Of a stretch of 64,000 nucleotides of DNA, positions 4,176 through 54,806 are shown one piece after another. Each line of letters begins with the position of its first letter. Position 1 is the first letter of the stretch. The notes beneath the pieces were generated by a model. It made no database searches, had not been told where the DNA came from, and worked only from the letters and a program-made list of their open reading frames with translations. The position numbers and the translations under genes are program-made. The DNA is taken from positions 535,020-599,019 of the forward strand of contig CAZNOH010000001.1 in assembly GCA_964574655.1 (NCBI GenBank), read 5' to 3'. The stretch comes from an uncultured Candidatus Saccharibacteria bacterium (GTDB taxonomy: Bacteria; Patescibacteriota; JABMPQ01; JAQVVF01).

Positions 4176-5099
4176 TTATTTACTTTTAAACCATTCATAA
4201 GTCATTTTAAGCCCGTCTTCTAATTTTACTTTTGGCTCCCAATTTAATTCTTGTTTAATCTTTGTGTTGTCTATGGCACTTGTTTTTTGATCACCTAGTC
4301 TTGCCTCTCCATGTTTTTCAGAAATACTTTGACCTGAAATTTTGGTTAGATTCTGAAAGATAGCATTAATATCTGTTTGAATTCCTGTGCCGACATTATA
4401 AATATTTTGTGATTTTTCGCTTTTTAAAGCTAGCAGATTTGCGTTTGCAACATCTTTGACAAAAACATAGTCTCTTGTACATTTGCCATCGCCGTTGATT
4501 ATTGGTTGTTCATTATTCACAATCTTTTGGCAAAAAATTGCAACAACTCCTGCTTCACCAAAAGGATCTTGCTTTGGACCATAAACATTGGCATAACGTA
4601 GAATAGTATAGTTTAACTTATTTAGAAAATTGAAGCAATATAAATATTTTTCAACGGCTAATTTTGTGACACCATAAGGAGAGACAGGTTTTGCTTCGTA
4701 ATTCTCTGGAGTTGGTAAAACATCAGCATCGCCATAAAGAGCGCCGCCTGTTGAAGCGAAAATTAGCTTTTTGATATTATGTTTTATTGCTAATTTAAAA
4801 ATATTTATTGATCCTAAAATATTATTTTCAGCATCACTGATTGGATCTTTGACAGATTCTGGGACTGAGGCATGAGCTGCCTGATGGCAAATGTATTCTG
4901 GCTTTTCTTGTTCGAAAATCTTTTCTATTTCATCAAAATTCTTAATATCTGCTTGATAAAATTTTGCTTTTTCATTTAAGTTTTCTTTTTTGCCAGTTGA
5001 TAAATTATCAATAATAACTACCTCATTGTTTTCTTCAATTAGTTTATCAGCAATGTGCGAGCCAATAAACCCCGCACCACCTGTAATTAATATTTTCAT
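4176..5099 (-). CDS. NAD-dependent epimerase/dehydratase (GalE-like UDP-sugar 4-epimerase family)
   Basis: GGAGFIGSH Rossmann motif plus a YxxxK catalytic region (YGVTK); sits inside the sugar-nucleotide cluster. Confidence 0.7.
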   Translation of the reverse strand: MKILITGGAGFIGSHIADKLIEENNEVVIIDNLSTGKKENLNEKAKFYQADIKNFDEIEKIFEQEKPEYICHQAAHASVPESVKDPISDAENNILGSINIFKLAIKHNIKKLIFASTGGALYGDADVLPTPENYEAKPVSPYGVTKLAVEKYLYCFNFLNKLNYTILRYANVYGPKQDPFGEAGVVAIFCQKIVNNEQPIINGDGKCTRDYVFVKDVANANLLALKSEKSQNIYNVGTGIQTDINAIFQNLTKISGQSISEKHGEARLGDQKTSAIDNTKIKQELNWEPKVKLEDGLKMTYEWFKSK

Positions 5100-5140
5100 A
5101 GTTTTATTTTTATGGTTAAAGATTAAAGATAATAGTAATT

Positions 5141-6502
5141 TTATATTTTGACCTTTTTTCCTGTTTCATGCATTTTTCTAATCTTATAGGGCGCACCGAT
5201 TACGTTCTCATATTTATATCCCATTTTTTCAAACATTTCTTTTGAGATTGGCCTTTTCTTGCCATATTCAACGACGTATAAATTTTCAGCGCCATCTTTA
5301 ATTAGTGTTCCGTCTCTAAATAAAACTGGACTGCCTGTTTTTAATTTGTTTAATGTCTGTTGAGATACTGCAACTAAATTATTTGGATCAAATTGATTAT
5401 TATAAATTATATTACTAATGATCGACCTTTTTTGGCTATTTTCTAATAAATATTTTATATTAGATTTTTTTTCATAGACAACAGTACCATCGATTGGAAA
5501 AACTGTGATTTTTGTAATACGTGAGCCTTTTTTGTAGAATTTTTTTCCGTTGGCATCAATTGGTTGAGCGTTTTTTTTATGATATCCGAGTATTTTAAAT
5601 ACTTTTTCTGATTGAAAGCGCCTAATAGTTTGATGACTAATAATAAAATAATTATTGTTTTGATCATACAATAATGTGCCATCTGGAAAAATTGTTGGTT
5701 TGCCGGTTAAATACTTGTCTTGACCTGTTGAAATTGTTATTGCTTGGGTCTCTTTATATTTTGATGCAAACGTAATTCTGTCAGAAAGAAAAGGCTTTTT
5801 CTTTTCATTTTGCAAAATGTAAAGAGTATTGTCGCCTTCTACTTTTAATAAGGTTCCATTTGGATAGTAATTTGCAAACCAATTTGTCCAAATCTGCCAG
5901 AACAGAAAATTGCCGTTGCCTGAGTCATCAATAGTTGCACCTTTGCCTGCTCCAGCATGTGGAGTGTAATTATATAATCCGGCTGTTGCATCATTCTTCG
6001 GAGTGATAGTGTAGCCGTCTGAAGTTGTTTTTGTGACTCCTTTTTGATAGCCATAGTATTCTGGATGATCAATGTACTGTCTGAATTGCCAAGTAGCACT
6101 GTCAATTTGCTTGAAAACGCCTTGATATTTGTATTGGATAGGATTAAATCGATCAAATACAGCATAGCCCATTAAATATTTCTTTTGATAATCTGTTAAA
6201 CTTGAATCAGTGATTGCACTTTGTTCTTTTTGAGCTGTAGCAATTATTAATTTCGGATTTATTTCATATTTTTGCGCTGAATCATAAATAATTTTTGCAA
6301 CGCTTTTGCCATTATATTTTAGCACTGCCAATTCACTTCCTTTTTTAATCAAGAATTTTTGGATTGCTGATTTTGTAAGTGATTTGGAATTTGTATATTC
6401 TTCATCTGTTAAAACATTGTCTGGATTAAAATATGCAGCCATTGAATTATGGGCTGAGATAAAAAAAAGGAATAGTGCGACAATTATTGTTTTTGTTTTC
6501 AT
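5141..6502 (-). CDS. secreted hypothetical protein with repeated (F)PDGTLL beta-strand motifs
   Basis: N-terminal signal peptide (MKTKTIIVALFLFFISAHNSMA); PDGTLLKV / PDGTLLYD / RDGTLIKD repeats; no known catalytic motif. Confidence 0.4.
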   Translation of the reverse strand: MKTKTIIVALFLFFISAHNSMAAYFNPDNVLTDEEYTNSKSLTKSAIQKFLIKKGSELAVLKYNGKSVAKIIYDSAQKYEINPKLIIATAQKEQSAITDSSLTDYQKKYLMGYAVFDRFNPIQYKYQGVFKQIDSATWQFRQYIDHPEYYGYQKGVTKTTSDGYTITPKNDATAGLYNYTPHAGAGKGATIDDSGNGNFLFWQIWTNWFANYYPNGTLLKVEGDNTLYILQNEKKKPFLSDRITFASKYKETQAITISTGQDKYLTGKPTIFPDGTLLYDQNNNYFIISHQTIRRFQSEKVFKILGYHKKNAQPIDANGKKFYKKGSRITKITVFPIDGTVVYEKKSNIKYLLENSQKRSIISNIIYNNQFDPNNLVAVSQQTLNKLKTGSPVLFRDGTLIKDGAENLYVVEYGKKRPISKEMFEKMGYKYENVIGAPYKIRKMHETGKKVKI

Positions 6503-12512: not shown

Positions 12513-12550
12513 ATAACTTGAAGTTTGCACCTTAAAGAAGGAGGGACAGA

Positions 12551-13054
12551 ATGACATTAAAAGTCGGGCAAGCTGTTATAATTCGAATATTGGAAGAAGG
12601 TGTTTGTCAGCGCCTGCTTGATGCTTTTGTAGAACGACTTGAGCCACTGACGTTCAGAGTTGCAACTACAGGTAGCTATTGGCACAAAAAATTTCAATTA
12701 TCTCAATGCGAATTTATTGCTCTAGGCCGTATGGAACCGAAGATCTACTGGTTCTGCAGACATACTATTCCTGATCCTCAAGGATTAGGTCAAAAACTAG
12801 ATCTTCGTCTTGTTGCCATTTCAGCATTGTGCGAGGTAACTGCTTGGGAAATTCTTTTCAGATCCCAGGGTGCCAAAATCGGTGATGCTGACTGTGACTT
12901 GCCTACTTTTAAGCAACATTTTCATATTGAAGCTACGACCAGCAACATGGACACTGAAGGAGTGTTGATCATCCACGATTGCTCCTTAGTCGCACCTTTT
13001 TGGATTGCTGATTCTGAGCCTTGCTATACGATTGAGAATATGAAACTGCGTTGA
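12551..13054 (+). CDS. ORFan protein (167 aa) in an intermediate-GC, strong-RBS cassette
   Basis: AAGGAGGG 6 nt before the ATG; G+C and codon usage clearly richer than neighbours; no recognisable domain. Confidence 0.5.
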   Translation: MTLKVGQAVIIRILEEGVCQRLLDAFVERLEPLTFRVATTGSYWHKKFQLSQCEFIALGRMEPKIYWFCRHTIPDPQGLGQKLDLRLVAISALCEVTAWEILFRSQGAKIGDADCDLPTFKQHFHIEATTSNMDTEGVLIIHDCSLVAPFWIADSEPCYTIENMKLR

Positions 13055-14437: not shown

Positions 14438-15886
14438 CTATTTTTGGTCTAGCTGATACATTTTATACAAGCTGACAATTAACCCCATAGCTATCCAATA
14501 AAATATATTAAGCATATTTGTAACTAAATACAAGGAGAAAAGCAGGCCAACACAGGTTGCAACGTAAAATGCAAATAAAGCAATTAATTCAGGCATTTCT
14601 TCAATTTTGGTTTTGTAGAGCTTAATAAAATATTTTATTAAATAATAATTGATAAATAAAAATGGAATAAGACCGATGATTCCAGCTTGAATTAAGACTC
14701 CCAATAGCTCATTATGCAAAGCACGCATTTCTACAGTTGAAACAAATCCTTTGAATTCGACATTAAGCATTTTTCCAAAACCAATACCTAGAATTGGATT
14801 TTTGGCATATTGCACTAATCCTTCTTGCCAGGCTTTCAAACGCCAGCCAGCTGCTTCCTCGATGTTGCCAGATTTTAGAGTAAATAAAGACTGAACTCTT
14901 TCTGTAAATCTTTGCGCATAAGTAGAGGCTTTAATATTTATATCTGCATTTAACATGGCTGTAATCCAGATGAACAATGAAAAAACAATTAGGACAACGA
15001 GCAAAATTCCAAAAATATTTTTCAAAGCAACTTTTCTTTTTTCTTTGTCTGATAAGAGAAAAATTGTGGCAAGGCCGGATAAAAATCCAAGCCAAAGATG
15101 TCGATGCATACCAGCAACAATGCCAACTGATTGGACTAAAATGACTGCTTGAGTTTTGATGTGGCCATAAATTTCTTTGCCATATATTAAAAAGACTATT
15201 GCAATAAAGACTGGCAGTAAAAGATAATAGGTATGCGTCTGAGCTAAGAATCTTGTTCCTGGAGTAAATTCACTCCACAAACCATTTCCAGTAGCTAAGC
15301 CATAAATAACAAAGCCAATTAAAATAATACCGCCTGCAAGAAAAACTTTGATAATTCTTTTGAACTGAACTTTTGTTCTAATTATAAATATTGTTAAAAA
15401 TAAAATTAATAAATAGCTGTAGTTCTTAAATGTTGCTAAAGCTAATTCTTTGTCAGGATTTTTGATAATGCTATAAACTAGAGCTGCTATCAAGGCTAGA
15501 AAAAAGATGAATGTTGCTTTTTCTAATCTGGTGTATCTTATTTCTTTACTATTGAGATTTCCAAAATGATGAATCAAAAAACTGATAAAAGTAATAATTA
15601 GCAAAACGTCAATTGGATAAATCTTGTAGATATTAATGTCTAGAATAATTGGCTGCAAGGTAAAGAATCTTTCATAAATCATTGTACAAAGGATAATTGT
15701 GTACAAGCCAACTTCTGGGACTTTTAGAATAAATAACGAGGCAAATCCAATTCCGAAAAGATATAAATAAATATTAAAAGGTATAAAAAGGGTTGGTAGG
15801 ATAAAAATGCTGACATAAATAAAACAAAGCACAGTATAGATTGTGGATTTTGATAAATTCTGAATTTTGTTTTTGATTGATGCCAT
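14438..15886 (-). CDS. O-antigen ligase/polymerase-like polytopic membrane protein (Wzy_C-like)
   Basis: About 10-12 predicted TM helices with a large loop; context among GT4 genes. Confidence 0.5.
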   Translation of the reverse strand: MASIKNKIQNLSKSTIYTVLCFIYVSIFILPTLFIPFNIYLYLFGIGFASLFILKVPEVGLYTIILCTMIYERFFTLQPIILDINIYKIYPIDVLLIITFISFLIHHFGNLNSKEIRYTRLEKATFIFFLALIAALVYSIIKNPDKELALATFKNYSYLLILFLTIFIIRTKVQFKRIIKVFLAGGIILIGFVIYGLATGNGLWSEFTPGTRFLAQTHTYYLLLPVFIAIVFLIYGKEIYGHIKTQAVILVQSVGIVAGMHRHLWLGFLSGLATIFLLSDKEKRKVALKNIFGILLVVLIVFSLFIWITAMLNADINIKASTYAQRFTERVQSLFTLKSGNIEEAAGWRLKAWQEGLVQYAKNPILGIGFGKMLNVEFKGFVSTVEMRALHNELLGVLIQAGIIGLIPFLFINYYLIKYFIKLYKTKIEEMPELIALFAFYVATCVGLLFSLYLVTNMLNIFYWIAMGLIVSLYKMYQLDQK

Positions 15887-15957
15887 ATCAGTATATGTTT
15901 TTAGATTAACATAATTTTTGAATAAAAAAAAGCAGTATTAAATTGGTAACTGCTTGA

Positions 15958-16024
15958 TGGTGCCCGGAGCGGGATTCGCCCTGCCATGAAGGCAGGGCGC
16001 CCCGCCCTTGTGGCGGGGCGAACC
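15958..16024 (-). pseudogene. partial duplicate of the tRNA-Leu 3' end interrupted by two GC-rich mini-hairpins
   Basis: tggtgcccggagcgggattcg (identical to the tRNA 3' terminus), then ccctgccatgaaggcagggcg and ccccgcccttgtggcggggcg, then aacc. Confidence 0.5.
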
Positions 16025-16066
16025 CAAATTATAAGCAAAAAAAACAGCACATTACTATGCTGTTGA

Positions 16067-16150
16067 TGGTGCCCGGAGCGGGATTCGAACCCGCATGTCT
16101 TGCGACGGAGGATTTTAAGTCCCCTGCGGCTACCTTTTCGCCATCCGGGC
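16067..16150 (-). tRNA. tRNA-Leu (anticodon TAA), long variable arm, CCA encoded
   Basis: Reverse complement folds as a cloverleaf: acceptor GCCCGGA/TCCGGGC, anticodon loop CTTAAAA, long variable arm, T-arm GGTTCGAATCC. Confidence 0.8.
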
Positions 16151-16272
16151 TGAAGGAACAGAAGGTACGCGTTTTTTGTAACATTGCATTATACTACAAT
16201 GGCCAAATTTGTCAATGTTTTGTGCTTACAAATCTCACGAATGCCTTAAGCTCGAATAACACTAATATACGA

Positions 16273-16554
16273 AACTCGGTTTTTTCTTGTTTAAGGCTCG
16301 GCTTTTTACTTAAAGATTTAATGTATTTTTATATTATTTTTGCTAGATAATTATAATTTTGAAACATGTGCAAAGCCGAGCCTTTTAAATCAATGCTCTT
16401 ACTATAAATTAAAAGGTTCGGCCTTATCAAAAATCCATATCTAAATTGCTTAACAAAATTATTCTAAGATATGTATTGTTTTCTTCAATCAAAAGACCGA
16501 ACCTTGTACTAAAAAATTCATTCTTTAACTCTCATTCTTTGAACTCGGTTTTCG
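16273..16554. repeat. nested inverted-repeat pairs bounded by a direct repeat, between tRNA-Leu and the high-GC block
   Basis: AACTCGGTTTT at 16273 and 16542; AAGGCTCGGCTTT (16293) vs AAAGCCGAGCCTT (16372); AAGGTTCGGCCTT (16411) vs AAGaCCGAACCTT (16491). Confidence 0.45.
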
Positions 16555-16691
16555 AAAAAGCATTGGAGTGAGCACAAAAAAAGAGCCCACTGAAAGTGAA
16601 CTCTTGAAGGAACGAACGCTGAAAGAACTGGAATTGTTGGAGAGAAGCCGCACCCGACGCACTTGCGTTTGTCGGATGGGAACTGAAGATT

Positions 16692-17276
16692 CTAGGGGAG
16701 CTTGAGGTAGTGGCCGCCGGAGGGATCCGACATGATCTTGAGACCATCGTAGACGTTGCATCCGACGACGGTCAGCCAGTCTTCGCCACTCCGAGGCCAC
16801 GCGGAATCGACACCAGCAGGAATCATCGCGCAAGCACCGTTGTTCGCCGTCTGCAGAGCGCAGACCGGCTCGACCCCAGGAGGCATGCACCCGAAGGTCC
16901 ACGCACCGAGGCCGACGATGTTGCCGCAGATCTGGCCGTTGTCGATCCACACCTCGCATATATCGGTGTCGGGCGGATTGTTGGGCACGCACTGGGTCTG
17001 GCCCGCCTGGCACTCGTTGCCACCTTCGCCTTCGCCCTCGCAGCCGCAGTCGCACCCCTCGCCCTCGCCTTCGCCACCGTCCACCACGCCACTGTCCGTC
17101 TCACCCTCGCCCTCGTTGCCCTCACCTTCTCCTTCTCCCTCACCTTCACCCTCGCCCTCGACGCCCTCACCCTCGCCCTCGTTGCCGTTGTCCTCCATGT
17201 CCTTCTCGCGCAGGGCGCAGTTCGTGTTGATGATCGTCAGGCCGAACAGGATCCACATCGTCGCGCGCTTCATCAC
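16692..17276 (-). CDS. secreted protein with (EG)n repeat and Cys-rich C-terminal domain, in the high-GC island
   Basis: GGAGGAGG RBS; N-terminal signal peptide; GEGEGEGEG tract; 14 cysteines; GC-rich codon usage unlike the host. Confidence 0.5.
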   Translation of the reverse strand: MMKRATMWILFGLTIINTNCALREKDMEDNGNEGEGEGVEGEGEGEGEGEGEGNEGEGETDSGVVDGGEGEGEGCDCGCEGEGEGGNECQAGQTQCVPNNPPDTDICEVWIDNGQICGNIVGLGAWTFGCMPPGVEPVCALQTANNGACAMIPAGVDSAWPRSGEDWLTVVGCNVYDGLKIMSDPSGGHYLKLP

Positions 17277-17351
17277 AGCACCTCCTCCTCTCTCGTTGAC
17301 TCACCCGAACCGGGCGCTCGACTCCTTGCGAAGCCGAGCGCCCGGACGACT

Positions 17352-18416
17352 CTAGAACCGCACGCCGAAGTTACCGGCGCCGGACTTGATCATCTGCCAC
17401 CCACGCCGGTCCTCCACGTCACCCTTGAGCTCGCCACGCATCTCGTAGATGAACGACCAGCCCTCGAGCTTCGCGAGTTCTCCGACGAATCCCACGCCAC
17501 CACCGACCTCACCGCGACCGAAGTACATGTGGGTGTCGAGGTCGAACGTCCTGCCGATCAGACAGAAGTGTGGCTTGATCCACTGCTTCCAGTCGTACTC
17601 GGCGTTCAGCTCGAACCCGGCAGCACCGACCTCGTTGGCCTTGCCGTACTGCGCGCCCACCCCGATGGTCCAGCTCTCGCTGACCGGGAAGTTGACACGG
17701 AGCATGGCTCCGACGAAGTTGTCGCGCTCGGGGCTCCAGAGGTACTGTCCGACCAGGTCGTAGGTGATGTTCACCTTGGCCTCGCCGTCGTCACCCCTGC
17801 AATCCATCACGTCGCACTTCGTGTCCTTGTTCACGTCCTCATCACCATCACACTTGTAGTTTTCATTGCTGTCCCAGCACTGGACCGACGGCTTGGGCAG
17901 GCAGTCTTCCACGAGCCGGATGATAGCACCGCGCTGCCCTTCCTGGGCTCGCGTGAACATCGTCCCCTCGCGGATTCTGTTGCCGTTGACACCGATCTCC
18001 ATCAGCTTGTTCATCATGTAGCTCGCCCGCGCCCGCGCCCGAACAGCCCTGAGCGGATCCTGACCCCCAGCAGCGCGCACCTCTGCGGTGCCGCCGAACG
18101 GGGTCACGTCCTCCACCCCGCTGACTTCCAGGCATCCGAACTGAGCGGTATCCAGAGTAGCCTTGGCGCCGTTGAGGGCGTCGGTCCACTCCGTCTTCCA
18201 GCTCACGTTCTGCCCGGTCAGGTCGGCGTTGAGGAACGTCCAGATCTTCTTCTGCGCGGTTGCCCGGTCTTCCTCGGCCACGGGGGCCTCGGGAGCCGGC
18301 TGCGCGTAGGCGATCTGTCCCTCCTCGTCGTCCATCCAGAAGTAGTTGTAGGGGTTGATGTTGAAGAAACCGCAGATGAAAACCACCACCATCAGCCAGT
18401 TGATCTTGCGCTTCAT
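17352..18416 (-). CDS. outer-membrane-protein-like protein (OmpA-like segment, Asp-rich Ca-binding-like motif, C-terminal Phe), in the high-GC island
   Basis: RBS GAGGAGG; signal peptide; segment RAVRARARASYMMNKLMEIGVNGNRIR resembles the OmpA C-terminal domain; CDGDEDVNKDTKCDVMDCRGDDGE; alternating beta-strand-like C-terminal half ending GVRF. Confidence 0.45.
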   Translation of the reverse strand: MKRKINWLMVVVFICGFFNINPYNYFWMDDEEGQIAYAQPAPEAPVAEEDRATAQKKIWTFLNADLTGQNVSWKTEWTDALNGAKATLDTAQFGCLEVSGVEDVTPFGGTAEVRAAGGQDPLRAVRARARASYMMNKLMEIGVNGNRIREGTMFTRAQEGQRGAIIRLVEDCLPKPSVQCWDSNENYKCDGDEDVNKDTKCDVMDCRGDDGEAKVNITYDLVGQYLWSPERDNFVGAMLRVNFPVSESWTIGVGAQYGKANEVGAAGFELNAEYDWKQWIKPHFCLIGRTFDLDTHMYFGRGEVGGGVGFVGELAKLEGWSFIYEMRGELKGDVEDRRGWQMIKSGAGNFGVRF

Positions 18417-18674
18417 CGTCTTGCCCTCCTCATCCTCGTTCTCTCGTGTTGTAGGGTCCTAACCCTGTTGTCGGAATCTGTAGAAAGTAACATTGAATAC
18501 TAGCACAATTGAAAAAATTTGTCAACAGGATTTGATGGTTTTACCTTATATAAGCCAAAATTTAACTCTAATTTGTTATAATTATGTTTATTTGGTAAAA
18601 TAGAAGCATTAAGTTATAAGCTATAAGCTATATTTTCTTATTGCTTACAGCTTTTAGCTATAGCTCAAAAAAAC

Positions 18675-19829
18675 ATGAAAAAATCATTATTTCTCACCTT
18701 CTTTTTTCCGCCAGAACGAGGTGGAATTCAAAATTATCTGTATAATATTTGCAAAAGATTGCCTAAAGAATCAGTCGTTGTTTGGGCACCAATTAATTCG
18801 AATTCTTTCGATTTTGACAAAAAACAAGGCTTCAAAATTGTCCGAAAAAGTTATAATAGCGCATTGCGAATGTTTGGTTTGAGCAGTCTGGAATATTTTT
18901 TTACAGTCCGAAAATTAGTTAAACAAAATAAGATAAATATTATTCATTGCGGGCATATTCATCCAATGGGCATGACTGCTTATTTGATTAAAAAGATTTT
19001 GCATATCCCCTACATTGTTTATACTTATGGAACTGAGATGAAAGAAATAGAAAGCAAGTCTGGATTCACAAAGAAGATGATGAAAAAGGTATTAGATTCC
19101 GCGCAAAATATTGTTGTGACAACTGATTATATGCAAGATTATATAGTGTCCAAATTCAATTTTTCTAGAGACGAAAAAATTCTAGATAAAAAATTTATTA
19201 AAATTTGTCCTGGCGTTAATTCTGATCTTTTTCATCCTTTAGATTCTTTCAAAATTAAACAAAGATTTGGACTAGAAGATCAAAAGATTATCTTGACTTG
19301 CGGAAGATTGGTGCCTCGCAAGAATCATGAAATGGTAATCAAGGCAATGCCAAATGTTTTGAAGCGCGTGCCAAATGCAAAGTATTATATTGTCGGCAAT
19401 GGTCCGACTTTAGAAAAATTAAGGCTGTTAATTAGAAATTTAAGGCTTGATGATAAAGTAAAAATTTTTACTAAAGTTTCTGATAAGGATTTGAATTTTT
19501 ATTATAATGTTGCAGATGTATTCATAATGGCATCTAAAGAAATTGACAATAAAAAGGATATTGAAGGATTTGGGCTTGTTTACTTGGAGGCCAATGCATG
19601 CAAAAAGCCAGTTATTGCTGGCAATACTGGAGGCGTAGCTGAAGCTGTACTTGATGGTCAAACTGGGATTTTAGTCAATCCAGAAAACATAAAAGAAATT
19701 ACTGATGCGTTAGTTAAGATATTGCGAAATGATGAGCTGGCAAGAGACTTGGGTGAATTTGGATATGAACGAGCTGTAAATGAATTTAGTTGGGACAAAT
19801 TGGTGCAAAAATTAATGAGAATATTATAA
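18675..19829 (+). CDS. glycosyltransferase family 4
   Basis: GT4 architecture with a C-terminal EGFGLVYLEANACKKPVIAG motif. Confidence 0.7.
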   Translation: MKKSLFLTFFFPPERGGIQNYLYNICKRLPKESVVVWAPINSNSFDFDKKQGFKIVRKSYNSALRMFGLSSLEYFFTVRKLVKQNKINIIHCGHIHPMGMTAYLIKKILHIPYIVYTYGTEMKEIESKSGFTKKMMKKVLDSAQNIVVTTDYMQDYIVSKFNFSRDEKILDKKFIKICPGVNSDLFHPLDSFKIKQRFGLEDQKIILTCGRLVPRKNHEMVIKAMPNVLKRVPNAKYYIVGNGPTLEKLRLLIRNLRLDDKVKIFTKVSDKDLNFYYNVADVFIMASKEIDNKKDIEGFGLVYLEANACKKPVIAGNTGGVAEAVLDGQTGILVNPENIKEITDALVKILRNDELARDLGEFGYERAVNEFSWDKLVQKLMRIL

Positions 19830-19830
19830 C

Positions 19831-19907
19831 TGTCATCCCGAACCGCTGTGAGGGATCCCGTGTTTTTAGAACAATCACGGGATTCCTCGTTGCGACTCGG
19901 AATGACA
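19831..19907. repeat. palindromic repeat TGTCATCCCGAACCGCTGTGAGGGATCCCGTG...CACGGGATTCCTCGTTGCGACTCGGAATGACA
   Basis: Second copy of the family seen at 14361-14432. Confidence 0.55.
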
Positions 19908-25063: not shown

Positions 25064-25423
25064 TCACTTAGGATGAACTTCAATGTCAAAATCTTTTTGA
25101 GACGCAGAGAGCTTGCTTTCGAGACGATGTACACAACTATCAAGAATCCTGTGAATCCAATCCTCATACTCTACTAAAAATAGGGGCGCTCTTTCAGAGA
25201 AGAAATTTGTTCTATCGAGATCGTGTACTACCTTTCTCGCATGTTCAGGCTTTAGCGATGCATTTTCCAACATAAAACAAATCCTACGGATGATCTCAAG
25301 GTACACTTCTCTTGCTTCATTAGGATAATCGTCATCTTCACTAAAGATTCCTTGTATGAGAATCAGATTTCGAAGCTCATCAATCAAAAGTTCGTGCAAC
25401 AATTTTTCTTTTGAATCTGCCAT
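25064..25423 (-). CDS. ORFan protein (119 aa from MADSKEK), second gene of a self-contained cassette
   Basis: GGAGGAAAAC RBS before ATGGCAGAT; intermediate G+C; a terminator hairpin AAGTGAG-agtaa-CTCACTT plus T-run overlaps the stop. Confidence 0.45.
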   Translation of the reverse strand: MADSKEKLLHELLIDELRNLILIQGIFSEDDDYPNEAREVYLEIIRRICFMLENASLKPEHARKVVHDLDRTNFFSERAPLFLVEYEDWIHRILDSCVHRLESKLSASQKDFDIEVHPK

Positions 25424-25458
25424 GTTTTCCTCCTGTCTCAAGGTACGGCCAACTCTTT

Positions 25459-31086: not shown

Positions 31087-31131
31087 TATTTGATCTGAAA
31101 GGTGCCACAAAAAGTGGCAAGGAGGAAGATA

Positions 31132-31548
31132 ATGGGAATGGTACGCGCATGCACTGGACAGCAATCTGAAAAAACAATCGGAAGTGTTCTAAAAAGTGTA
31201 ACTCCTTTTGTTGGATCTGATCGCGAAGGTGAAATTTCGCAATTGGGCATTGGATTGATTGATGGTACTTCTGCGTCTTTTTGGGGTTTGCTAGTACCAC
31301 ATCTGGTTATCAGATCATGGCGTGCAATGAAGATTTTGGAGCAACTGCAAACTATTCAGGCAGACTCTCTATGCGCATGCTACTATGCAGCAAGGCGTGA
31401 AATTGATGATACAAATAAAAACTTGATTGAGAGTCTTGCTAATCTTTTCGGCGGTATCAATAAATTCGAGGCAGTTCGCAGAACAGTTCTGGCAAGCGCT
31501 CCTAGCGCTGATGAACTGAATGAAATGCTAGCAATTTTCCATGCATAA
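31132..31548 (+). CDS. ORFan protein (138 aa), first gene of a two-gene intermediate-GC cassette
   Basis: Strong RBS AAGGAGGA 6 nt upstream; the track ORF begins at a GTG at 31102 inside the UTR hairpin, but ATG 31132 is better supported. Confidence 0.45.
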   Translation: MGMVRACTGQQSEKTIGSVLKSVTPFVGSDREGEISQLGIGLIDGTSASFWGLLVPHLVIRSWRAMKILEQLQTIQADSLCACYYAARREIDDTNKNLIESLANLFGGINKFEAVRRTVLASAPSADELNEMLAIFHA

Positions 31549-31551
31549 GGC

Positions 31552-32181
31552 GTGGATGTTAGCTGTCATGAACTGAAGGAAGAGATCGAGTCTAAAAGAA
31601 TTTCTACTTCTCCTCTGATTGAGTCCTTGATTCGCGAAGCAGAAGAACGCAGTGTCGCCTATCAACGTCAGGAAGAGGAAATTAACAGACCATTGCCTCG
31701 CGAGGAAAGTCTTGGCGCTTTTTTTGAAGATCTTCAGATTGGCAATTTCATCATTGGCAGTGGAATTGGCGGATATGGCATGGACTGGGGACATATCGAA
31801 TTGTCAAATCTGGATAAGATAGCCAAACAAGCTAGTTTAAGCAAACACTGTCCCGATGGACACAGGCTGGAGCATACTACTAAAGGTCCATATACGCGTA
31901 TTGTAAAGGGGTCTGGCATTACTATGTACACGACTTCGTTTGGTGAAATCGAACAGCCTTGGTTTGTTGCCAAAGACGGCACTCATTATACTTTCCTGTT
32001 TGCCAAATTCCGTGAAGGATATTTTCATGTCAGAGTGGCAATCACAAGACCTGGAAACGAGGAAGTTCTCAAAGAAGAACATACTCTTGTTGAACTGCGA
32101 GCCATGATTGGAGAACTACCGCCAAGGCCCGTGATGAAATCTGGCTTGCTATCTAGGTTTGCATCTTTGATTGGCCTGTAA
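31552..32181 (+). CDS. ORFan protein (209 aa), second gene of the cassette
   Basis: Starts 4 nt after the upstream stop; no recognised domain. Confidence 0.45.
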   Translation: MDVSCHELKEEIESKRISTSPLIESLIREAEERSVAYQRQEEEINRPLPREESLGAFFEDLQIGNFIIGSGIGGYGMDWGHIELSNLDKIAKQASLSKHCPDGHRLEHTTKGPYTRIVKGSGITMYTTSFGEIEQPWFVAKDGTHYTFLFAKFREGYFHVRVAITRPGNEEVLKEEHTLVELRAMIGELPPRPVMKSGLLSRFASLIGL

Positions 32182-42085: not shown

Positions 42086-42199
42086 AAAATCCTAAATCCA
42101 AAATTCTAAAACCAAATTTTAAGACAATGACGTCTGCTTTAGATTTTTTATTTTGAAATTTGAATTTATTTAGAATTTATAATTTGGGATTTAGAATTT
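42086..42199. repeat. long palindromic element, CTAAAT family copy with an aatGACGtctg centre
   Basis: aaaatcctaaatccaaaattctaaaaccaaatttt ... gaaatttgaatttatttagaatttataatttgggatttagaattt. Confidence 0.5.
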
Positions 42200-44721
42200 C
42201 ACAACGTCTTTACTCCTGCTACTTCTAATGCTTTTTTTTCAGATTCAGCAATTTGAGCTCTCTCCATTATCTCGCCTGCAACGATTGACTTACTGCGTCC
42301 ATATTGTAAGCGTGATAATTCTCTAACTGCATTCGCGATCTTCATGTTTGCACCTTCGGCTGGCGGATATGTTGCCATTGTAAATGCTTTTGATTTTGCG
42401 CTATCAATCATTAATCTAAGATAAGCGTGATATTTCTCAATATTAATAACATCATTTTCAGTGAAAACTGGCTCAAGCTCCTTGGCTACGATTTCTGCAT
42501 CTTCAACACCAACACGAAATGAGGTAAACGTACCGACGTTTCCAAAAACTGCATCTCTTATTTTTTCTTCAAGCTGTTTTATGTACTGGTGAGCGACGAT
42601 CAAATTGAGTTTGTATTTTCTAGCTTCAGACAAAATTGAAGCAAAGCTATCTGTAGCAAAATTTTGGAACTCATCAACGTATAAATAAAAATCCTTTCTT
42701 TCAGATTCTGGAATATCAGCGCGTGAATACGCTGCCATCTGAATCTTAGAAACAATAATCAAACCTAACAAAGACGAATTCGTCTCACCGATCTTGCCTT
42801 TAGAAAGATTTACAAGCAGAACTTTGCCTTCATCCATTATTTTTCTTAAATCAAACGACGAATGGCTCTGACCAATTATATTTCTCATCATTTCATTTTC
42901 CACAAAACGACCAACTTTAGAGATTATGTAACCCAACATTTCTGATTTATGAAAGTCTGAAGTTTTTGCCATTTCTTTTTCCCAGAAAGCTCGAACAACT
43001 GGATCTTTTAATTTTGCAATCCATTCTTTTGCATATTCAGTGTCTGTGAACATTCTCGGAATTTCTGCTAAAGTGCCTGGATTTTCTTTATCAGACATCA
43101 AAGTCAGCATAACATTTCTCATTTGGTGTTCGAACATCGGACCGATCATCTCTGGCGGAAATAATTTGAAGAAAATTTGCATCATCTCCTGTACAGCAAA
43201 ATCTTTTTGATCTTCTGTTTTAAATTCAAGCATATTTAAACCCATCGGACGATCAATATCAAAAGGTTCAAACAAAATAACATCGTCAACTCTTTCTTTT
43301 GGAATGAAAGGCAAAATACTTTCAACTAAATCACCATGCGGATCAACAACGCAGATGCCTTTGCCAGCTTTGATATCCTGGATAATCATATTTTGCAAAA
43401 GATTGGATTTACCAACACCGGTTTGACCAATAACATACATATGCCTTCTTCGATCATCATCTTTGATGTGAATAGGAGTTTCGATTCCACGATAGACATT
43501 TTTTCCTAATAGCAAGCCTTGTTTTGGAGTATTGTGCGGAGCTGGAGCATCACGAGCCAATAGCCAATGGACATTTGGAGTTTCGGTGAATTTTGTTGGA
43601 AGATGGAATATTGATGCTAACTCTTCAGTATTAAGAATACACTTTTTTTTATTGTCAAAACTGCGGAATATAAAATCCTGAATTAATTTTGATAAGCGAA
43701 CTTTGCGCTTAAAGAATTTGTTTGATGATGGGTCTGCATATTGCGAAAAAGCGCCAATAATGCTTTCTAAAGTTTCTTCTGCTTTAGTCTCTTGATCTGA
43801 GCAAGCGATGATTCTAATATTTGTGAAAAAGCCGAGCTTGTTTGATTTTATTTCTAAAGCTTTGATTCTTTCTTGGACCAAAGGTGACAAATTTGGCAGT
43901 CCTCCTGATTGTGATTGTTCTGGTCCAGACATAGGGTTGACTGCTTGTTCTAGAACACTTCTTTCTTCTTCTTTTTTTCGACGGAAAAGTTTGCCAATAA
44001 GATTTGCAGAGGCATGCTCATATGTTTCGCCACGTTGCATTTTTCTAGCAATGTGCGGTCCTTCTTTCATCCAAGACTTGCCTGCAGGACGAATTAGATA
44101 TTGAATTGCTGCACCTTCTGTTTTTTCATTTAATTTACTCAAAGCATTTGTAATGCCGTTCAATGGATCTGATTCAATGGTCTGATAGGTCTTGATTGGC
44201 AGAAAATCTTGGTTTTCAGTTGTTAACATGGCGCCTCTAATCTTGCACTTTGGAGTAAAAATATTATACTCACCCTCTTCAGAAATGAAAGCTTTAGGAA
44301 ATTGAGAGTGGATAACTTTTTCAACATATTGTTGCAATCTCCTTGGCACTGCAACATAAAAACGAATTTCTCCTTTTAACGAGACTATTTCAAAAGATAT
44401 ATATTCTTTTCCATAAAAACTTGCCAACAAACCCTTAGTAACTGATTCAATAGAATGAAGATTGGCAAACATAGTTTCAGCAACAGAAATCATTTCTTTT
44501 TCTTCTTTCTTGGCTTCTTCAGCAACTGGCTTGGTTTCTTTTGGAACAGAAATGAGCAAGGTAACCATATCAAGAGAATGCGGTATTATGTTTCTTTTTT
44601 TGAGAGCAGAAATTACTAAAAGATATAATAATATAGCCAAAGCTAAAAGAGTTATTACAAAAATAATGCTAACAAACGGTTCAGAACTAGAACTGAATAA
44701 ATTAATATAATTACTTATCAT
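42199..44721 (-). CDS. membrane-anchored VirD4/TraG/TrwB-like (type IV coupling protein / DUF87-type) P-loop ATPase
   Basis: N-terminal TM helix; Walker A VIGQTGVGKSN; Walker B region DEFQNF ... LIVAHQ. Confidence 0.55.
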   Translation of the reverse strand: MISNYINLFSSSSEPFVSIIFVITLLALAILLYLLVISALKKRNIIPHSLDMVTLLISVPKETKPVAEEAKKEEKEMISVAETMFANLHSIESVTKGLLASFYGKEYISFEIVSLKGEIRFYVAVPRRLQQYVEKVIHSQFPKAFISEEGEYNIFTPKCKIRGAMLTTENQDFLPIKTYQTIESDPLNGITNALSKLNEKTEGAAIQYLIRPAGKSWMKEGPHIARKMQRGETYEHASANLIGKLFRRKKEEERSVLEQAVNPMSGPEQSQSGGLPNLSPLVQERIKALEIKSNKLGFFTNIRIIACSDQETKAEETLESIIGAFSQYADPSSNKFFKRKVRLSKLIQDFIFRSFDNKKKCILNTEELASIFHLPTKFTETPNVHWLLARDAPAPHNTPKQGLLLGKNVYRGIETPIHIKDDDRRRHMYVIGQTGVGKSNLLQNMIIQDIKAGKGICVVDPHGDLVESILPFIPKERVDDVILFEPFDIDRPMGLNMLEFKTEDQKDFAVQEMMQIFFKLFPPEMIGPMFEHQMRNVMLTLMSDKENPGTLAEIPRMFTDTEYAKEWIAKLKDPVVRAFWEKEMAKTSDFHKSEMLGYIISKVGRFVENEMMRNIIGQSHSSFDLRKIMDEGKVLLVNLSKGKIGETNSSLLGLIIVSKIQMAAYSRADIPESERKDFYLYVDEFQNFATDSFASILSEARKYKLNLIVAHQYIKQLEEKIRDAVFGNVGTFTSFRVGVEDAEIVAKELEPVFTENDVINIEKYHAYLRLMIDSAKSKAFTMATYPPAEGANMKIANAVRELSRLQYGRSKSIVAGEIMERAQIAESEKKALEVAGVKTL

Positions 44722-48613: not shown

Positions 48614-48653
48614 TAAAAATTGAATTTGCACCTGAGAGAAGGAGGAGGAAAAG

Positions 48654-49184
48654 ATGGCGAGGATCGCAATCATCGGTGGCTCAGCAGATGAAAAGATTCG
48701 CGATGAATTGGTAGAAAAAATCACTCGCGAACTGGTTGCAAGAAAACATCAAGTATTCCATGGCGGATTGGATTTTGGAGTCATGCTTGCCTGTCATAAA
48801 GGTGGCGGTATTGGCATTACTCACCAAGATCAAATTGACGGTGGCTTTGCTTTAGCTGATGCCATGAACGTTAGCGTGTTGAAACATCAATTTCCTGGAT
48901 TCAATGAAATTGATTTTGGACGCGCAATTCGTCATCAGCTGTTGACACAAGAGTGCGATTTGGTAATTGCTTTCGGAGGTGGAATCAGAACTTTTGACGA
49001 GCTGATTGGAGCAATCATGACAAAGAGAAAGATTGTTCTTGTAGGACACGATTGGTCGCCTTTGCTATATGTTTTGTTTGGAAAAATCGAGATCGAGCAT
49101 GAAAAAACCTTGCTATGCAAAGTTTTACCTCACCATCCAATTGAAACCATTGTGTCTGCAATCGAAGCTCATTTGAAGAAATAG
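48654..49184 (+). CDS. LOG/TIGR00725-like (SLOG Rossmann) nucleotide-binding protein
   Basis: IAIIGGS ... GGLDFGVMLACHKGGGIGIT ... VIAFGGGIRTFDELIGA matches the GGGxGxM ... PGGxGTxxEL pattern of LOG-family proteins; strong RBS. Confidence 0.55.
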   Translation: MARIAIIGGSADEKIRDELVEKITRELVARKHQVFHGGLDFGVMLACHKGGGIGITHQDQIDGGFALADAMNVSVLKHQFPGFNEIDFGRAIRHQLLTQECDLVIAFGGGIRTFDELIGAIMTKRKIVLVGHDWSPLLYVLFGKIEIEHEKTLLCKVLPHHPIETIVSAIEAHLKK

Positions 49185-53568: not shown

Positions 53569-53622
53569 AGATAATTGCACATTATATTTCACCTGCCGAG
53601 AACGGCAGGATTGGAGGTTAAA

Positions 53623-54189
53623 GTGAAACAGCCACTGATATTGAGAGTAGCGAAACAGCCATTGGAATGGGAGACAGGAGCTGTTTTTGAAGAATATCCG
53701 ATTGGCACAATGATCAGATTGCCGATAACAAAGCGATTTGGTCCTTTTTGGCTATTCAAGTATCATACTGATGTTACTGCAAAAGTTGTTGCTCAAGATG
53801 CTGAAATCGTGAAGAGAAAAAGCAATGGAAAAACAATTCCCTTTTTTCATAGTGTTGCGGAATTGTATATTGCACCATATGGCAAACGATGCTTGTTGGG
53901 AGTATTGGATAAGTTTATGATGGACGGATTTGCTGAAGTTCTTTCTGTACCAGATTGCGAGATGCATGATGAAGATGGGAAAAAAGTCTTCACGGAGCTT
54001 GCAGTTGGAGATTCTGTCAGAGCATACAGAGAAGACACTCGCATAGAAGGAAAGATTATTGCTATAACTGGATTGAATGTATATACAATTTCTGATCTTC
54101 GCGATCCAGACTGGACTCATTACCTTAATGTTTCGCTGAGAGATTTGCTTTGGTACAAGAGAGAGCCGAATAAGGGGCAACTGGTTTGA
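53623..54189 (+). CDS. ORFan protein (188 aa from GTG 53623; the track ORF starts at a TTG at 53575 inside the 5'UTR)
   Basis: GGAGG 5 nt before GTG; intermediate G+C; no recognised domain. Confidence 0.45.
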   Translation: MKQPLILRVAKQPLEWETGAVFEEYPIGTMIRLPITKRFGPFWLFKYHTDVTAKVVAQDAEIVKRKSNGKTIPFFHSVAELYIAPYGKRCLLGVLDKFMMDGFAEVLSVPDCEMHDEDGKKVFTELAVGDSVRAYREDTRIEGKIIAITGLNVYTISDLRDPDWTHYLNVSLRDLLWYKREPNKGQLV

Positions 54190-54772: not shown

Positions 54773-54806
54773 GAAATTGGGTAGCTAAGTGTCGGAGGGA
54801 AACAAC

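Follow-up and report, generated by a model that had tools for sequence, protein, structure and literature searches.

An old, fast-evolving GC-rich operon co-inherited with its AT-rich neighbours in Patescibacteria

Escherichia coli OmpA and Pseudomonas aeruginosa OprF join an 8-stranded outer-membrane (OM) barrel to an OmpA-C-like peptidoglycan-binding domain, and the protein of gene A in the locus described here is predicted to combine the same parts. In A, however, the order is reversed: the OmpA-C-like domain comes first, followed by a Cys/Asp-rich module and then, at the C terminus, the barrel. A has no match to the Pfam OmpA (PF00691) or OMP_b-brl models at E≤1. In the diderm Terrabacteria (Negativicutes, Deinococcus, Cyanobacteria), the outer membrane is tethered to peptidoglycan by OmpM and the SLH-porins. 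In these proteins the wall-binding domain comes first and a C-terminal barrel last. A follows the same N-to-C logic, a likeness which implies no homology; its wall domain is OmpA-C-like and not SLH, and its barrel is 8-stranded, unlike the 16–28-stranded porins.

Under the amelioration model of Lawrence and Ochman, horizontally acquired islands of atypical composition reportedly should drift to the composition of their host. The GC-rich block which contains gene A resembles such islands in its foreign composition, its codon use and its tRNA neighbour. In contrast to them, it is unameliorated over a dS of at least 1–1.5 while its own paralogues, x1 and x2, have ameliorated, and it carries no mobility genes. 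Two forces acting on bacterial GC content have been described as genome-wide tendencies: selection on GC (Hildebrand et al. 2010; PMC2936529) and recombination-linked GC-biased gene conversion (gBGC) (Lassalle et al. 2015; PMC4450053). The block matches the pattern which Lassalle et al. described for recombining genes, since its excess of GC-ending codons consists of non-optimal codons and the locus recombines. Here, however, GC3 steps from 0.25 to 0.85 within the limits of one promoter and one terminator.

A GC-rich transcription unit in an AT-rich chromosome

In the window, by which we mean the whole 64 kb stretch of DNA analysed, GC is about 0.30 outside the block (0.27–0.41 per kb). Between positions 16600 and 18400 it is 0.56–0.70 in 200-nt windows, compared with 0.25–0.35 in the neighbouring sequence. 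Sliding-window GC thus confirmed the abrupt switch which an earlier, sequence-only reading had placed at ~16560–18480. The block is one minus-strand transcription unit, bounded by its promoter and its terminator (Table 1), and constitutes a two-gene unit of 62–65% G+C within a bacterial chromosome of 30% G+C. Both of the co-oriented minus-strand genes proposed earlier are present, as open reading frames of 354 aa (gene A) and at 16692–17276 (gene B), each with an upstream GGAGG; that of gene A lies 8 nt upstream of the ATG. The accompanying claim that host genes lack GGAGG held for almost all other long open reading frames of the window, but a few genes of intermediate GC (e.g. 12551–13054 and 48654–49184) carry AGGAGG.

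Codon use in the block is the inverse of the host's. GC3 is 0.72–0.86 in the block versus 0.18–0.31 in the flanks, and AAG, TTC, TAC and CAG account for 100% of their codon families, compared with ~20% in host genes. A (5%) and T (10%) are both depleted at third positions, and first and second positions have normal A content. GC is also raised in the transcribed non-coding sequence (0.63–0.70 in the spacer and 0.43–0.53 in the UTRs). The promoter itself is at 0.24–0.33, and the increase begins only downstream of it.

In a promoter scan, the promoter of the unit scored 10 of 12 matches plus the TG extension, and its TTGACA/TGTGCTAnTnT block was kept in 8 of 8 loci. We infer that transcription starts at ~18490. 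The intercistronic hairpin, also found as an inverted repeat, was kept in all six loci compared, and one of its pairs has changed in a compensatory way (UA↔CG). No part of the unit is better conserved than the 3′ UTR, at 65–96% nucleotide identity versus 47–79% for the coding sequences, and the terminator was invariant across 6 loci. The conserved downstream neighbour, tRNA-Leu(UAA), is outside the GC-rich unit, which lies on its 5′ side. An Rfam search over 15800–18800 at E≤1 returned the tRNA alone, with no known RNA family within the block.

Table 1. Features of the GC-rich unit and its neighbours, in window coordinates (aa, residues of the encoded protein)
Feature	Position	Strand	Remarks
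GT4 glycosyltransferase	18675–19829	+	divergently transcribed; GC3 0.28; upstream synteny anchor
Sigma-70-type promoter	18497–18525	−	TTGACA, 17 nt, TG-extended TAGTAT; AT-rich, host-like
5′ UTR	18417–18490	−	~70 nt, 51% GC; conserved CCCTACAAC..GAGAGA leader; GGAGG 18425–18429
Gene A	17352–18416	−	354 aa; GC 0.62, GC3 0.85
A, N-terminal hydrophobic segment	aa 7–19	−	
A, OmpA-C-like domain (predicted fold)	17901–18248 (~aa 57–172)	−	
A, Cys/Asp-rich CWDxN..DC module	17772–17879 (~aa 180–215)	−	one, 35-aa
A, 8-stranded beta-barrel (predicted)	17355–17768 (aa 217–354)	−	ends ..GVRF
Intercistronic GC hairpin	17310–17345	−	13-bp stem CCGGGCGCTCGGC...GTCGAGCGCCCGG; between A stop and B ribosome-binding site
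Gene B	16692–17273	−	193 aa from ATG; SD GGAGGAGG 17281–17288; GC 0.65, GC3 0.81
B, (EG)n acidic spacer	17100–17181	−	encoded by hexamer array
3′-UTR hairpin	16648–16680	−	CCCAYCCGAC..GTCGGGTGCGG; conserved, consensus fold
Intrinsic terminator	16572–16605	−	AAGAGTTCAC..GTGGGCTCTT plus T7; from terminator scan; end of GC-rich tract
tRNA-Leu(UAA)	16067–16150	−	own consensus promoter 16188–16215, terminator 16043–16064
597-aa “shadow” ORF	16710–18503	+	antisense to A and B with codons in exact register; no gene

Predicted architecture of the encoded proteins

Neither A nor B matched any Pfam or NCBIfam model at E≤1, the OmpA, TSP_3 and OMP barrel models included, and because of this their domains were assigned from predicted fold only. 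For A, the OmpA-C-like segment and the beta-barrel of the sequence-only reading agree with the predicted fold. The structure model of A, built on a 7-sequence alignment, is of moderate quality (pLDDT 62, pTM 0.43). It contains both the beta-alpha-beta-alpha-beta-beta arrangement of OmpA-C folds and an 8-stranded antiparallel up-and-down barrel of the class of the small OM barrels OmpA-TM, OmpX, OmpW and NspA, and A is predicted to consist of an OmpA-C-like fold plus an OM-type barrel. When a profile of 27 family members was compared with the PDB, YiaD and MotB were the best matches, yet at E = 0.23–0.5 only; in this sub-threshold alignment D103 and R130, which are invariant across the 27 members, pair with the Asp of TD and the Arg of QQRA in YiaD. 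OmpA-C domains contact the diaminopimelate of peptidoglycan through a conserved Asp and a conserved Arg. The OmpA-C-like domain probably binds peptidoglycan. At the C terminus, all seven A orthologues end in the beta-signal G[VL]RF, with G351, R353 and F354 invariant, and paralogue x1 ends IGIRF.

The Cys/Asp segment of A is not matched by the TSP_3 model at E≤1. It is an instance of an uncurated 35-aa repeat, CWDxNxNG..ED.NGD..DC.G, which makes up the bulk of 365 profile matches, often alternating with collagen-like GXX runs. When Pfam was applied to the remote relatives and to x1 and x2, it identified Collagen only, in the repeat proteins.

B had been described as a 194-aa secreted protein with an (EG)n repeat and a 14-Cys domain. 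The signal peptide, the repeat and a Cys-rich domain are all present, but we count 12 Cys, and the length is most likely 193 aa, with the ATG at 17273 as the most likely start on the basis of its 7-nt spacing from GGAGG (versus 4 nt for the GTG at 17276). The Cys-rich C-terminal domain is conserved and ends GGHYLKLP; the window's B lacks a ~50-aa Cys-rich module which other alleles have. In nearly all alleles the hydrophobic segment is followed by a Cys and then AL. Most alleles have G or S at position −1 of this putative lipobox (consensus [LVI][ASTVI][GAS]C), and the window has N (NTNC). B is, judging from this motif, a probable lipoprotein. The AF2 model of B was poor (pLDDT 49), and Foldseek found no fold match for it.

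Conservation, co-divergence and origin

Among 5.8 × 10^9 proteins, we found 7 homologues of A and 5 of B; those with a named source are from Patescibacteria. Two long contigs, JAQVVF010000001.1 (210 kb) and Ga0376277_0000067 (645 kb), and several shorter ones share the arrangement Wzz–GT4–A–B–tRNA-Leu–(x1, x2)–Wzy. Wherever flanks could be read, the contig is AT-rich and shows the GC step; none is GC-rich, and a single GTDB species representative has the block. With the GT4 glycosyltransferase gene as the neutral-clock control, dS was 0.47–1.7 for A and 0.42–2.8 for GT4 (Spearman 0.84), and the ranking of loci by A identity agreed with their ranking by flank identity. Synteny and co-divergence indicate that the operon is old and has been inherited together with its flanks.

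Strict vertical descent is blurred by recombination among alleles. Trees of different allele segments conflict with 92–100% bootstrap support, and mosaic alleles share segments of 91–97% identity between copies which are otherwise 60–75% identical. In a comparison of two loci (L001 and L005), the flanks were 98–99.6% identical at the amino acid level, while A was only 69% identical. The A and B proteins evolve 3–5 times faster than those of their neighbours (dN/dS ~0.3–0.4), and this fast evolution, together with recombination, is what one would expect of proteins exposed at the surface or at the interface with a host.

The foreign, diderm-derived appearance reported in the sequence-only reading is borne out by the inverse codon use, by the predicted OmpA-C-like and barrel fold and by the GC-rich sources of relatives. 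Two of these (P0167 and P0135) are on contigs of uniformly 62–67% GC, a third (P0164) is from a Polyangiaceae MAG, and a further alignment-based homology search added at least two GC-rich relatives. The remote relatives share A's architecture; the closest GC-rich ones are only 20–30% identical, and the direct donor is unsampled. An ancient diderm origin of the operon is supported. In a tree of A, x1, x2 and the GC-rich relatives, bootstrap values were ≤55%, and x1 and x2 could be duplicates of A or separate acquisitions.

As a whole, the explanation that we favour, and hold to be probable though well short of certain, is an old diderm-derived operon, co-inherited with its surroundings, whose GC is held by a local bias. 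The block would be a single SD-led two-gene operon for diderm-type envelope proteins, A uniting an OmpA-C-like domain, a Ca-binding-like Cys/Asp module and an 8-stranded OM-type barrel and B being a Cys-rich probable lipoprotein. An ancient transfer from a GC-rich diderm, probably Myxococcota-like, may have brought it under a host-type sigma-70 promoter in the Wzz/GT4/Wzy surface glycan locus of a small AT-rich Patescibacteria clade. It would then have been inherited together with its flanks, its alleles recombining between lineages, while a GC-favouring substitution bias limited to the transcription unit, with an effective B of ~2 and affecting UTRs, intergenic spacer and codons, kept GC3 at ~0.7–0.85 against AT pressure. 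Donor type, surface location, the function of A and B and the cause of the bias are, in this account, inferred.

Retention of GC and competing explanations

The abrupt composition step at either end of the block is what one would expect if it were an assembly chimera or a contaminant fragment joined to an AT-rich contig, as the sequence-only reading had allowed. However, assemblies made independently (NCBI, JGI, Logan and ENA-type) repeat the same block, junctions included, with the same AT-rich genes on either side, and the 210 kb and 645 kb contigs are among them; window positions 17229–19860, which contain the upstream junction, recur at 100% identity in another assembly (L016); and the bracketing promoter and terminator are both conserved. 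A chimera is extremely improbable. The alternative offered in the same reading, that a GC-rich diderm recently passed the block to this genome by horizontal transfer, would fit the host-inverse codon use, the SD sequences, the diderm-type predicted folds and the adjoining tRNA gene. Yet homologues of both proteins sit inside related AT-rich genomes, as orthologous GC-rich blocks at the same locus with flanks diverged to dS 1–2.8. Moreover, dS of A is about that of the flanking gene, the A tree agrees with the flank tree, GC3 is near stationary with no decay at the host rate, and the 5.8 × 10^9 proteins contain no close donor homologue. We found no integrase open reading frame, no flanking direct repeats and no att repeats bracketing the block, the sole tRNA-derived repeat (15954–15978) lying beyond the tRNA 3′ end; an integrative element at tRNA-Leu was therefore rejected. 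A phage origin was rejected because the IMG/VR viral contigs contained no relatives. We consider recent acquisition very unlikely; rather than a fault of assembly or an import of recent date, the block is a conserved, fast-evolving operon. It is also quite unlikely that each copy is young, with A–B alleles evolving in an unsampled GC-rich host bacterium, plasmid or phage and being repeatedly swapped in by homologous recombination via conserved promoter/5′-UTR and 3′-UTR anchors. Such cassette replacement would explain the conserved UTRs around divergent coding sequences (3′ UTR up to 96%, coding sequences 47–79%), the mosaic alleles and the disparity between A and its flanks in L001 and L005. 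It is opposed by the AT-richness of every contig with readable flanks, by the lack of viral-contig matches and the single GTDB species representative, by the presence of an AT-rich host-type promoter among the anchors, and by the way in which dS of A tracks flank dS (rho 0.84), which is unexpected for independent draws from a pool.

If the operon is old, its GC might simply be decaying slowly. Passive amelioration after a single acquisition in the clade ancestor, with no GC-favouring force and decay still incomplete, is an unlikely alternative, in which, for example, many GC→AT changes would have been purged as deleterious amino acid or RNA changes. We polarised third-position changes on the L001 and L005 branches by parsimony, which is biased in skewed sequences, and obtained rates in the block of 0.054/site for S→W and 0.122/site for W→S (implied equilibrium GC3 ~0.70), compared with 0.129/site and 0.078/site in the flanks (implied equilibrium ~0.38). 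In raw counts, S→W changes in the block outnumbered W→S changes (53 vs 27), the W→S excess alone was not significant (p = 0.12), and two loci, L006 and L009, have a GC3 of 0.72–0.73, below the other copies; these observations favour passive decay, and slow net loss of GC from the block is compatible with them. In contrast, on the same branches the odds of S→W change in the block were 0.38 times those in the flanks (p = 1.8 × 10^−5), while dS was equal or higher. G↔C changes are frequent at third positions, and therefore these sites are not frozen. By our calculation, a block that started all-GC and changed at flank rates since the L006 split would have fallen to a GC3 of ≤0.67, whereas every copy is at 0.72–0.86. 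The paralogues x1 and x2, adjacent in the same locus, have kept GGAGG but have ameliorated to GC3 0.27 and 0.34. A different way of accounting for the tract, as mainly a large structured non-coding RNA or with the plus-strand 597-aa frame as a real gene, draws on the fact that GC-rich islands of AT-rich genomes are often RNA genes and on the absence of stops over 597 codons. Rfam was nonetheless empty across the block, folding stability did not exceed that of synonymous shuffles, substitutions (position 3 > 1 > 2) and a dN/dS of 0.3 suit the minus-strand frames, and domain models were obtained for the minus-strand proteins. The plus-strand frame matched no Pfam or NCBIfam family at E≤1 and was not kept as a single frame in the homologous loci L001, L003, L005 and L009. 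TTA, CTA and TCA are missing from the sense codons to which it is antisense. The sequence-only reading had rightly dismissed it, and we judge this account highly improbable.

With regard to the cause of the bias, selection on mRNA structure is unsupported: against synonymous-codon shuffles, z was −1.55 for A and +0.81 for B, and the mRNA of the block is more stable by composition alone (−42 vs −18 kcal/mol per 120 nt). Translational selection for GC3 was rejected because the spacer and UTRs are also GC-rich and because AAG, CAG and GAG run counter to host usage. DGR-like adenine mutagenesis was rejected as well, given that A and T are both depleted, at third positions only; a search for repeats of the coding sequence gave none. 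We lean to selection at the level of nucleotides or mRNA, only slightly ahead of biased gene conversion linked to recombination.

Patescibacteria, the phylum of this genome, are considered to have no outer membrane (PMC12102498), and the OmpA-like, OM-barrel-type predicted proteins found here are candidates for the epibiont–host interface. It is conceivable, although we are doubtful, that presumed monoderm Patescibacteria use an OM-type barrel/OmpA-like tether (A, x1, x2) with a partner lipoprotein at their surface, and that a transcript-confined force holds GC3 at ~0.8 past dS 1. If so, the tether might pin the wall of the epibiont to a diderm host's outer membrane, or form an OM-like layer of the cell's own. 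The force might consist of selection favouring GC-rich mRNA or DNA, or of a hotspot of GC-biased gene conversion (B ~2), and the locus would be a natural gene-scale experiment on the maintenance of bacterial GC.

Lying beside ameliorated paralogues and AT-rich flanks, the block provides a rare within-locus contrast with which to tell apart mutation bias, GC selection and biased gene conversion. Its GC step, inverse codons, foreign ribosome-binding sites and tRNA neighbour form the textbook signature of recent transfer or contamination, and yet belong to an old co-inherited locus, which both composition-based cleaning of MAGs and the dating of horizontal transfer would misjudge. Gene callers are misled also: in L005, the public gene call is the antisense shadow ORF instead of gene B.

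The transcription unit and its signals

In 200-nt windows, GC content rose from 0.25–0.31 at 16300-16599 to 0.56–0.70 across 16600-18400 and returned to 0.25–0.35 by 18500, while per-kilobase GC was at most 0.41 everywhere else in the 64-kb window. These profiles bear out the abrupt GC-rich block described in the sequence-only reading. The two minus-strand ORFs it claimed are also present, gene A (17352-18416, 354 aa) and gene B (16692-17276), with GGAGG 5′ of both. Two details of B are corrected: its start is more likely the ATG at 17273, giving 193 rather than 194 aa, and it has 12 cysteines, not 14. A GGAGG-class ribosome-binding site, said to be missing from host genes, is indeed missing from nearly all other long ORFs, but a handful of genes with mid GC (0.41–0.44) carry AGGAGG (among them 25064-25441, 31102-32181, 53575-54189 and 54789-55208). 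Two further genes of this mid-GC set, unrelated to each other, have a common leader of identical length, TTTGCACCTNARAGAAGGAGG, at 12524-12544 and 48625-48645 (+).

From orthologue comparison, the coding strand of the block is the minus strand. Differences by codon position of the minus-strand frames follow the order 3 > 1 > 2 (e.g. 0.38, 0.27, 0.16), and dN/dS between orthologues is ∼0.3 for A and ∼0.4 for B. The 597-aa plus-strand ORF (16710-18503) exists as claimed and had been correctly dismissed as a gene. It is the exact codon-aligned antisense of A and B, which happen to be in the same frame, and no stop interrupts it, as TTA, CTA and TCA are absent from the sense codons of either gene. 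The frame is fragmented into pieces of 268–497 codons in the related loci L001, L003, L005 and L009 and has no family match in Pfam or NCBIfam; we reject it as a shadow ORF. The public annotation of L005 calls such an antisense shadow at 4748-5527 (-) as a gene, and the true gene B at 4832-5545 (+; 237 aa, P0009) was missed, a concrete annotation error due to the GC-rich block.

The GC-rich tract coincides with a single transcription unit, whose promoter and terminator are kept in every related locus. GC content is 0.24–0.33 in the promoter, 0.47–0.53 in the 5′ UTR, 0.58–0.62 in gene A, 0.63–0.70 in the intergenic spacer, 0.62–0.67 in gene B, 0.43–0.49 in the 3′ UTR and 0.29–0.42 downstream. 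The enrichment therefore begins past the inferred transcription start and stops at the terminator, covering codons and the transcribed non-coding parts alike. The 3′ UTR is the best-conserved part of the unit, and Rfam gave no match inside the block. Together, the data show A-B to be a strongly promoted, Shine-Dalgarno-dependent bicistronic mRNA encoding two exported envelope proteins.

Features of the A-B unit and related elements (window coordinates unless a related locus is named)
Feature	Location	Strand	Details
Sigma-70 promoter	18497-18525	-	near-consensus: TTGACA, 17 nt, TG-extended TAGTAT; promoter scan
Intrinsic terminator	16581-16605	-	followed by T7; terminator scan
GC hairpin in A-B spacer	17310-17345	-	13 bp; kept in 6/6 loci, one compensatory pair
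Second hairpin, in 3′ UTR	16648-16680	-	conserved among related loci
tRNA-Leu 3′-fragment element	15955-16032	-	window copy
tRNA-Leu 3′-fragment element	L001 12268-12334, 12384-12450; L007 2425-2491; L008 3384-3450		other copies
TTTGCACCTNARAGAAGGAGG-led gene	12551-13054	+	no family match
TTTGCACCTNARAGAAGGAGG-led gene	48654-49184	+	SLOG/LOG-like protein
x1 in L001	12740-13549		269 aa, ends IGIRF
x2 in L001	13729-14988		417–419 aa, = P0032
x1/x2, other coordinates	L003 12880-14133; L007 2926-3591		

The tRNA-Leu promoter and start (16178-16210) are 73% alike over 33 nt to those of A-B (18487-18519) in the same orientation. The likeness includes CAATGTTAC 3′ of the -10 element and is weaker in L001; the operon may have borrowed the tRNA promoter, or the likeness may be chance. 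The AT-rich spacer from the operon terminator to tRNA-Leu (16270-16560) is essentially unalignable between genomes and holds several AAGGYTCGGYCTT-like motifs, direct and inverted (e.g. 16410-16425 and 16493-16508). Just downstream of tRNA-Leu, several genomes carry one or two copies of an element made of the tRNA's T-stem and 3′ acceptor strand with two GC hairpins inserted in the T-loop. It shares 19 identical nt with the real tRNA at 16067-16085, is predicted to fold as a three-way junction (z = -3 to -4.3), has its own terminator in each copy and has no family in Rfam.

Synteny, age and recombination of the locus

Both explanations first offered for the block, a chimeric contig join and recent transfer, are refuted. 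Among 5.8 billion clustered proteins A has only 7 homologues, the 2 with names both ‘Patescibacteria group bacterium’, and the true homologues of B number 5. Two of the contigs carrying them measure 210 kb (GCA_028699085.1) and 645 kb. The window and the homologues' contigs have a common gene order: DUF5679, DUF5656, Wzz, a divergent GT4 glycosyltransferase, A, B, tRNA-Leu(UAA), Wzy_C and GT4. GC jumps from ∼0.30 to 0.58–0.72 in every contig with readable flanks, none of which is GC-rich beyond the block. Window 17229-19860, which crosses the upstream junction, is matched at 100% identity by Logan contig L016, and the window is otherwise ordinary chromosome (DnaB, DnaX, CysRS, SerRS, BipA). 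The block occurs in one GTDB species representative only, and no relatives were found in viral contigs. In L008, an IS-type transposase (HTH + rve_3; 3-902, -) lies directly upstream of A where others have GT4; the locus has therefore been rearranged in that lineage.

Homologues in related AT-rich genomes, named beforehand as an argument against recent transfer, were found for both A and B, and GC-rich copies are present in all lineages. Flank proteins share 82–99% identity among the window, L001, L003 and L005, and 66–72% with L006. A shares 46–77%, with its relatives ranked as in the flanks, and B 52–74%; block proteins evolve 3–5 times faster than flank proteins. Synonymous divergence of A tracks that of the divergent GT4 (0.84 vs 0.98 for window-L001, 1.25 vs 1.03 for window-L003, 0.70 vs 0.42 for L001-L005; Spearman 0.84 over 10 non-independent pairs). 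The block therefore diverged together with its flanks.

Judged by identity and clustering, A-B alleles are mosaic, and lineages recombine at this locus in the manner of surface-antigen loci. The window and L008 are 84–95% identical over the A N-terminal domain, 92–97% over the B C-terminal domain and 52–81% between. The window 3′ UTR clusters with L001 (95% identity, bootstrap 100); in L005, the barrel of A clusters with L001 (bootstrap 100) and B with L008 and the window (bootstrap 92). B alleles have gained or lost a Cys-rich module of ∼50 aa, and their (EG)n tract varies in length. These comparisons show an operon within a surface-glycan locus that is conserved in a narrow clade, fast-evolving and recombining.

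Four related loci (L001, L003, L007, L008) carry two extra genes, x1 and x2, between the tRNA and Wzy; both are absent from the window and L005. Both are paralogous to A, by tblastn against the window (E = 1e-15) and by profile (E = 1.5e-21). Although of the same family and locus as A and B, and still preceded by GGAGG, they have a composition near the host's (GC3 0.27 and 0.34). Lying 1–3 kb off in the same genomes, these paralogues have therefore ameliorated; A and B have not.

Retention of GC content

Across all lineages, GC3 is 0.72–0.86 in A and B vs 0.18–0.31 in the flanks, and codon choice is the inverse of the host's (AAG 100% vs 20%, TTC 100% vs 21%, CTC+CTG 100% vs 6%). Third-position changes were polarised by parsimony, a procedure biased in skewed sequences, on the L001 and L005 branches. 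Gene A showed 0.054 S→W (G/C to A/T) changes per S site and 0.122 W→S per W site, an implied equilibrium GC3 of ∼0.70; flanks showed 0.129 and 0.078, implying ∼0.38. S→W is reduced in gene A relative to flanks (odds ratio 0.38, p = 1.8e-5); the W→S excess by itself is not significant (p = 0.12). The ∼2.4-fold fall in S→W and ∼1.6-fold rise in W→S are those expected under a fixation bias B of ∼2. G↔C changes occur often at third positions, which are therefore not frozen. At flank rates and at the depth of the L006 split (at least 3.6 times that of the L001-L005 branch, by GT4 dS), even an ancestral GC3 of 1.0 would by now have fallen to ∼0.67, below every observed copy. Raw counts in the block still have S→W above W→S, and some slow net GC decay is possible.

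GC retention requires a GC-favouring bias limited to the A-B unit. We lean towards selection at the nucleotide or mRNA level, because the tract is bounded by the transcript, UTRs and spacer are also affected, and the mRNA has a much higher predicted stability than host mRNAs (-42 vs -18 kcal/mol per 120 nt). Biased gene conversion linked to recombination competes seriously with this view: recombination at the locus is demonstrable, the conserved UTRs could bound heteroduplex tracts, and the excess of non-optimal GC-ending codons in A and B matches the pattern that Lassalle et al. reported for recombining genes (PMC4450053). An operon of 0.85 GC3 persisting in a genome of 0.25 GC3 beside ameliorated paralogues is unusual and directly testable; we found no description of such an operon in the literature.

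Proteins A and B and their origin

No Pfam or NCBIfam model matches A or B; both are unannotated and represent new variants of known folds. The AlphaFold model of A (overall pLDDT 62, domains 68–84, from a 7-sequence alignment) places an alpha/beta domain at residues 58-170, followed by eight long strands (220-353), and Foldseek agreed weakly with the predicted domains. The proposed OmpA-C-like segment lacks a family match but fits the predicted fold and a sub-threshold profile alignment (E = 0.23), in which D103 and R130, invariant in 27 family members, align with the TD Asp and RA Arg of YiaD and MotB. All A orthologues end in G[VL]RF, which with the eight predicted strands upholds the beta-rich C-terminal half ending in Phe. 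About half of the barrel strands show clear hydrophobic alternation, and 8-stranded barrels of soluble proteins are matched too, at lower Z; membrane insertion is plausible on this model. By predicted fold, A is an OmpA-like protein with its domain order reversed. In B, the signal peptide contains a conserved Cys-Ala-Leu, the spacer is an acidic (EG)n tract and a Cys-rich domain is conserved. B is probably a lipoprotein; its predicted model was poor and gave no fold match.

Between the two domains of A lies one 35-aa CWDxNxNG..ED.NGD..DC.G module (17772-17879). The module is tandem in the bulk of 365 profile hits, often alternating with collagen-like GXX runs, and this widespread repeat has no Pfam model. 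It occurs in proteins P0014-P0160 and reaches 17 copies in proteins of 1200–2000 aa; A has a single one.

With a HMMER profile, ∼30 proteins sharing the A N-terminal domain were found among 1.84 billion representatives; Gly, Ala, Arg and Pro are abundant in most of them. In those inspected, the C-terminal half is barrel-like too, and its last residue is hydrophobic or aromatic. P0167 adjoins an RHS/Tc-toxin gene and giant ORFs on a 197-kb contig of 65% GC, P0135 lies on a contig of 62% GC, and P0164 comes from a Polyangiaceae MAG; the family thus belongs mainly to GC-rich diderms. These relatives support the foreign diderm origin proposed earlier. The donor may reasonably be guessed to have been Myxococcota-like. 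Identity between A and its nearest GC-rich relatives is only 20–30%, and deep branches of the family tree are poorly supported (bootstrap at most 55%).

A would bind peptidoglycan via its OmpA-like domain and display a small beta-barrel outward on the Ca-binding-like linker, with B as its lipid-anchored partner. Patescibacteria are considered to have no outer membrane (PMC12102498; see also PMC8871954), and therefore the barrel's target could be the membrane of a diderm host where the epibiont makes contact with it. If so, pressure from host or phage would account for the rapid evolution and the shuffling of alleles. Elsewhere in the window, a VirD4/TrwB-like type IV coupling protein (42199-44721, -; 840 aa) agrees with published reports of a monoderm-type T4SS in Patescibacteria (PMC12102498).
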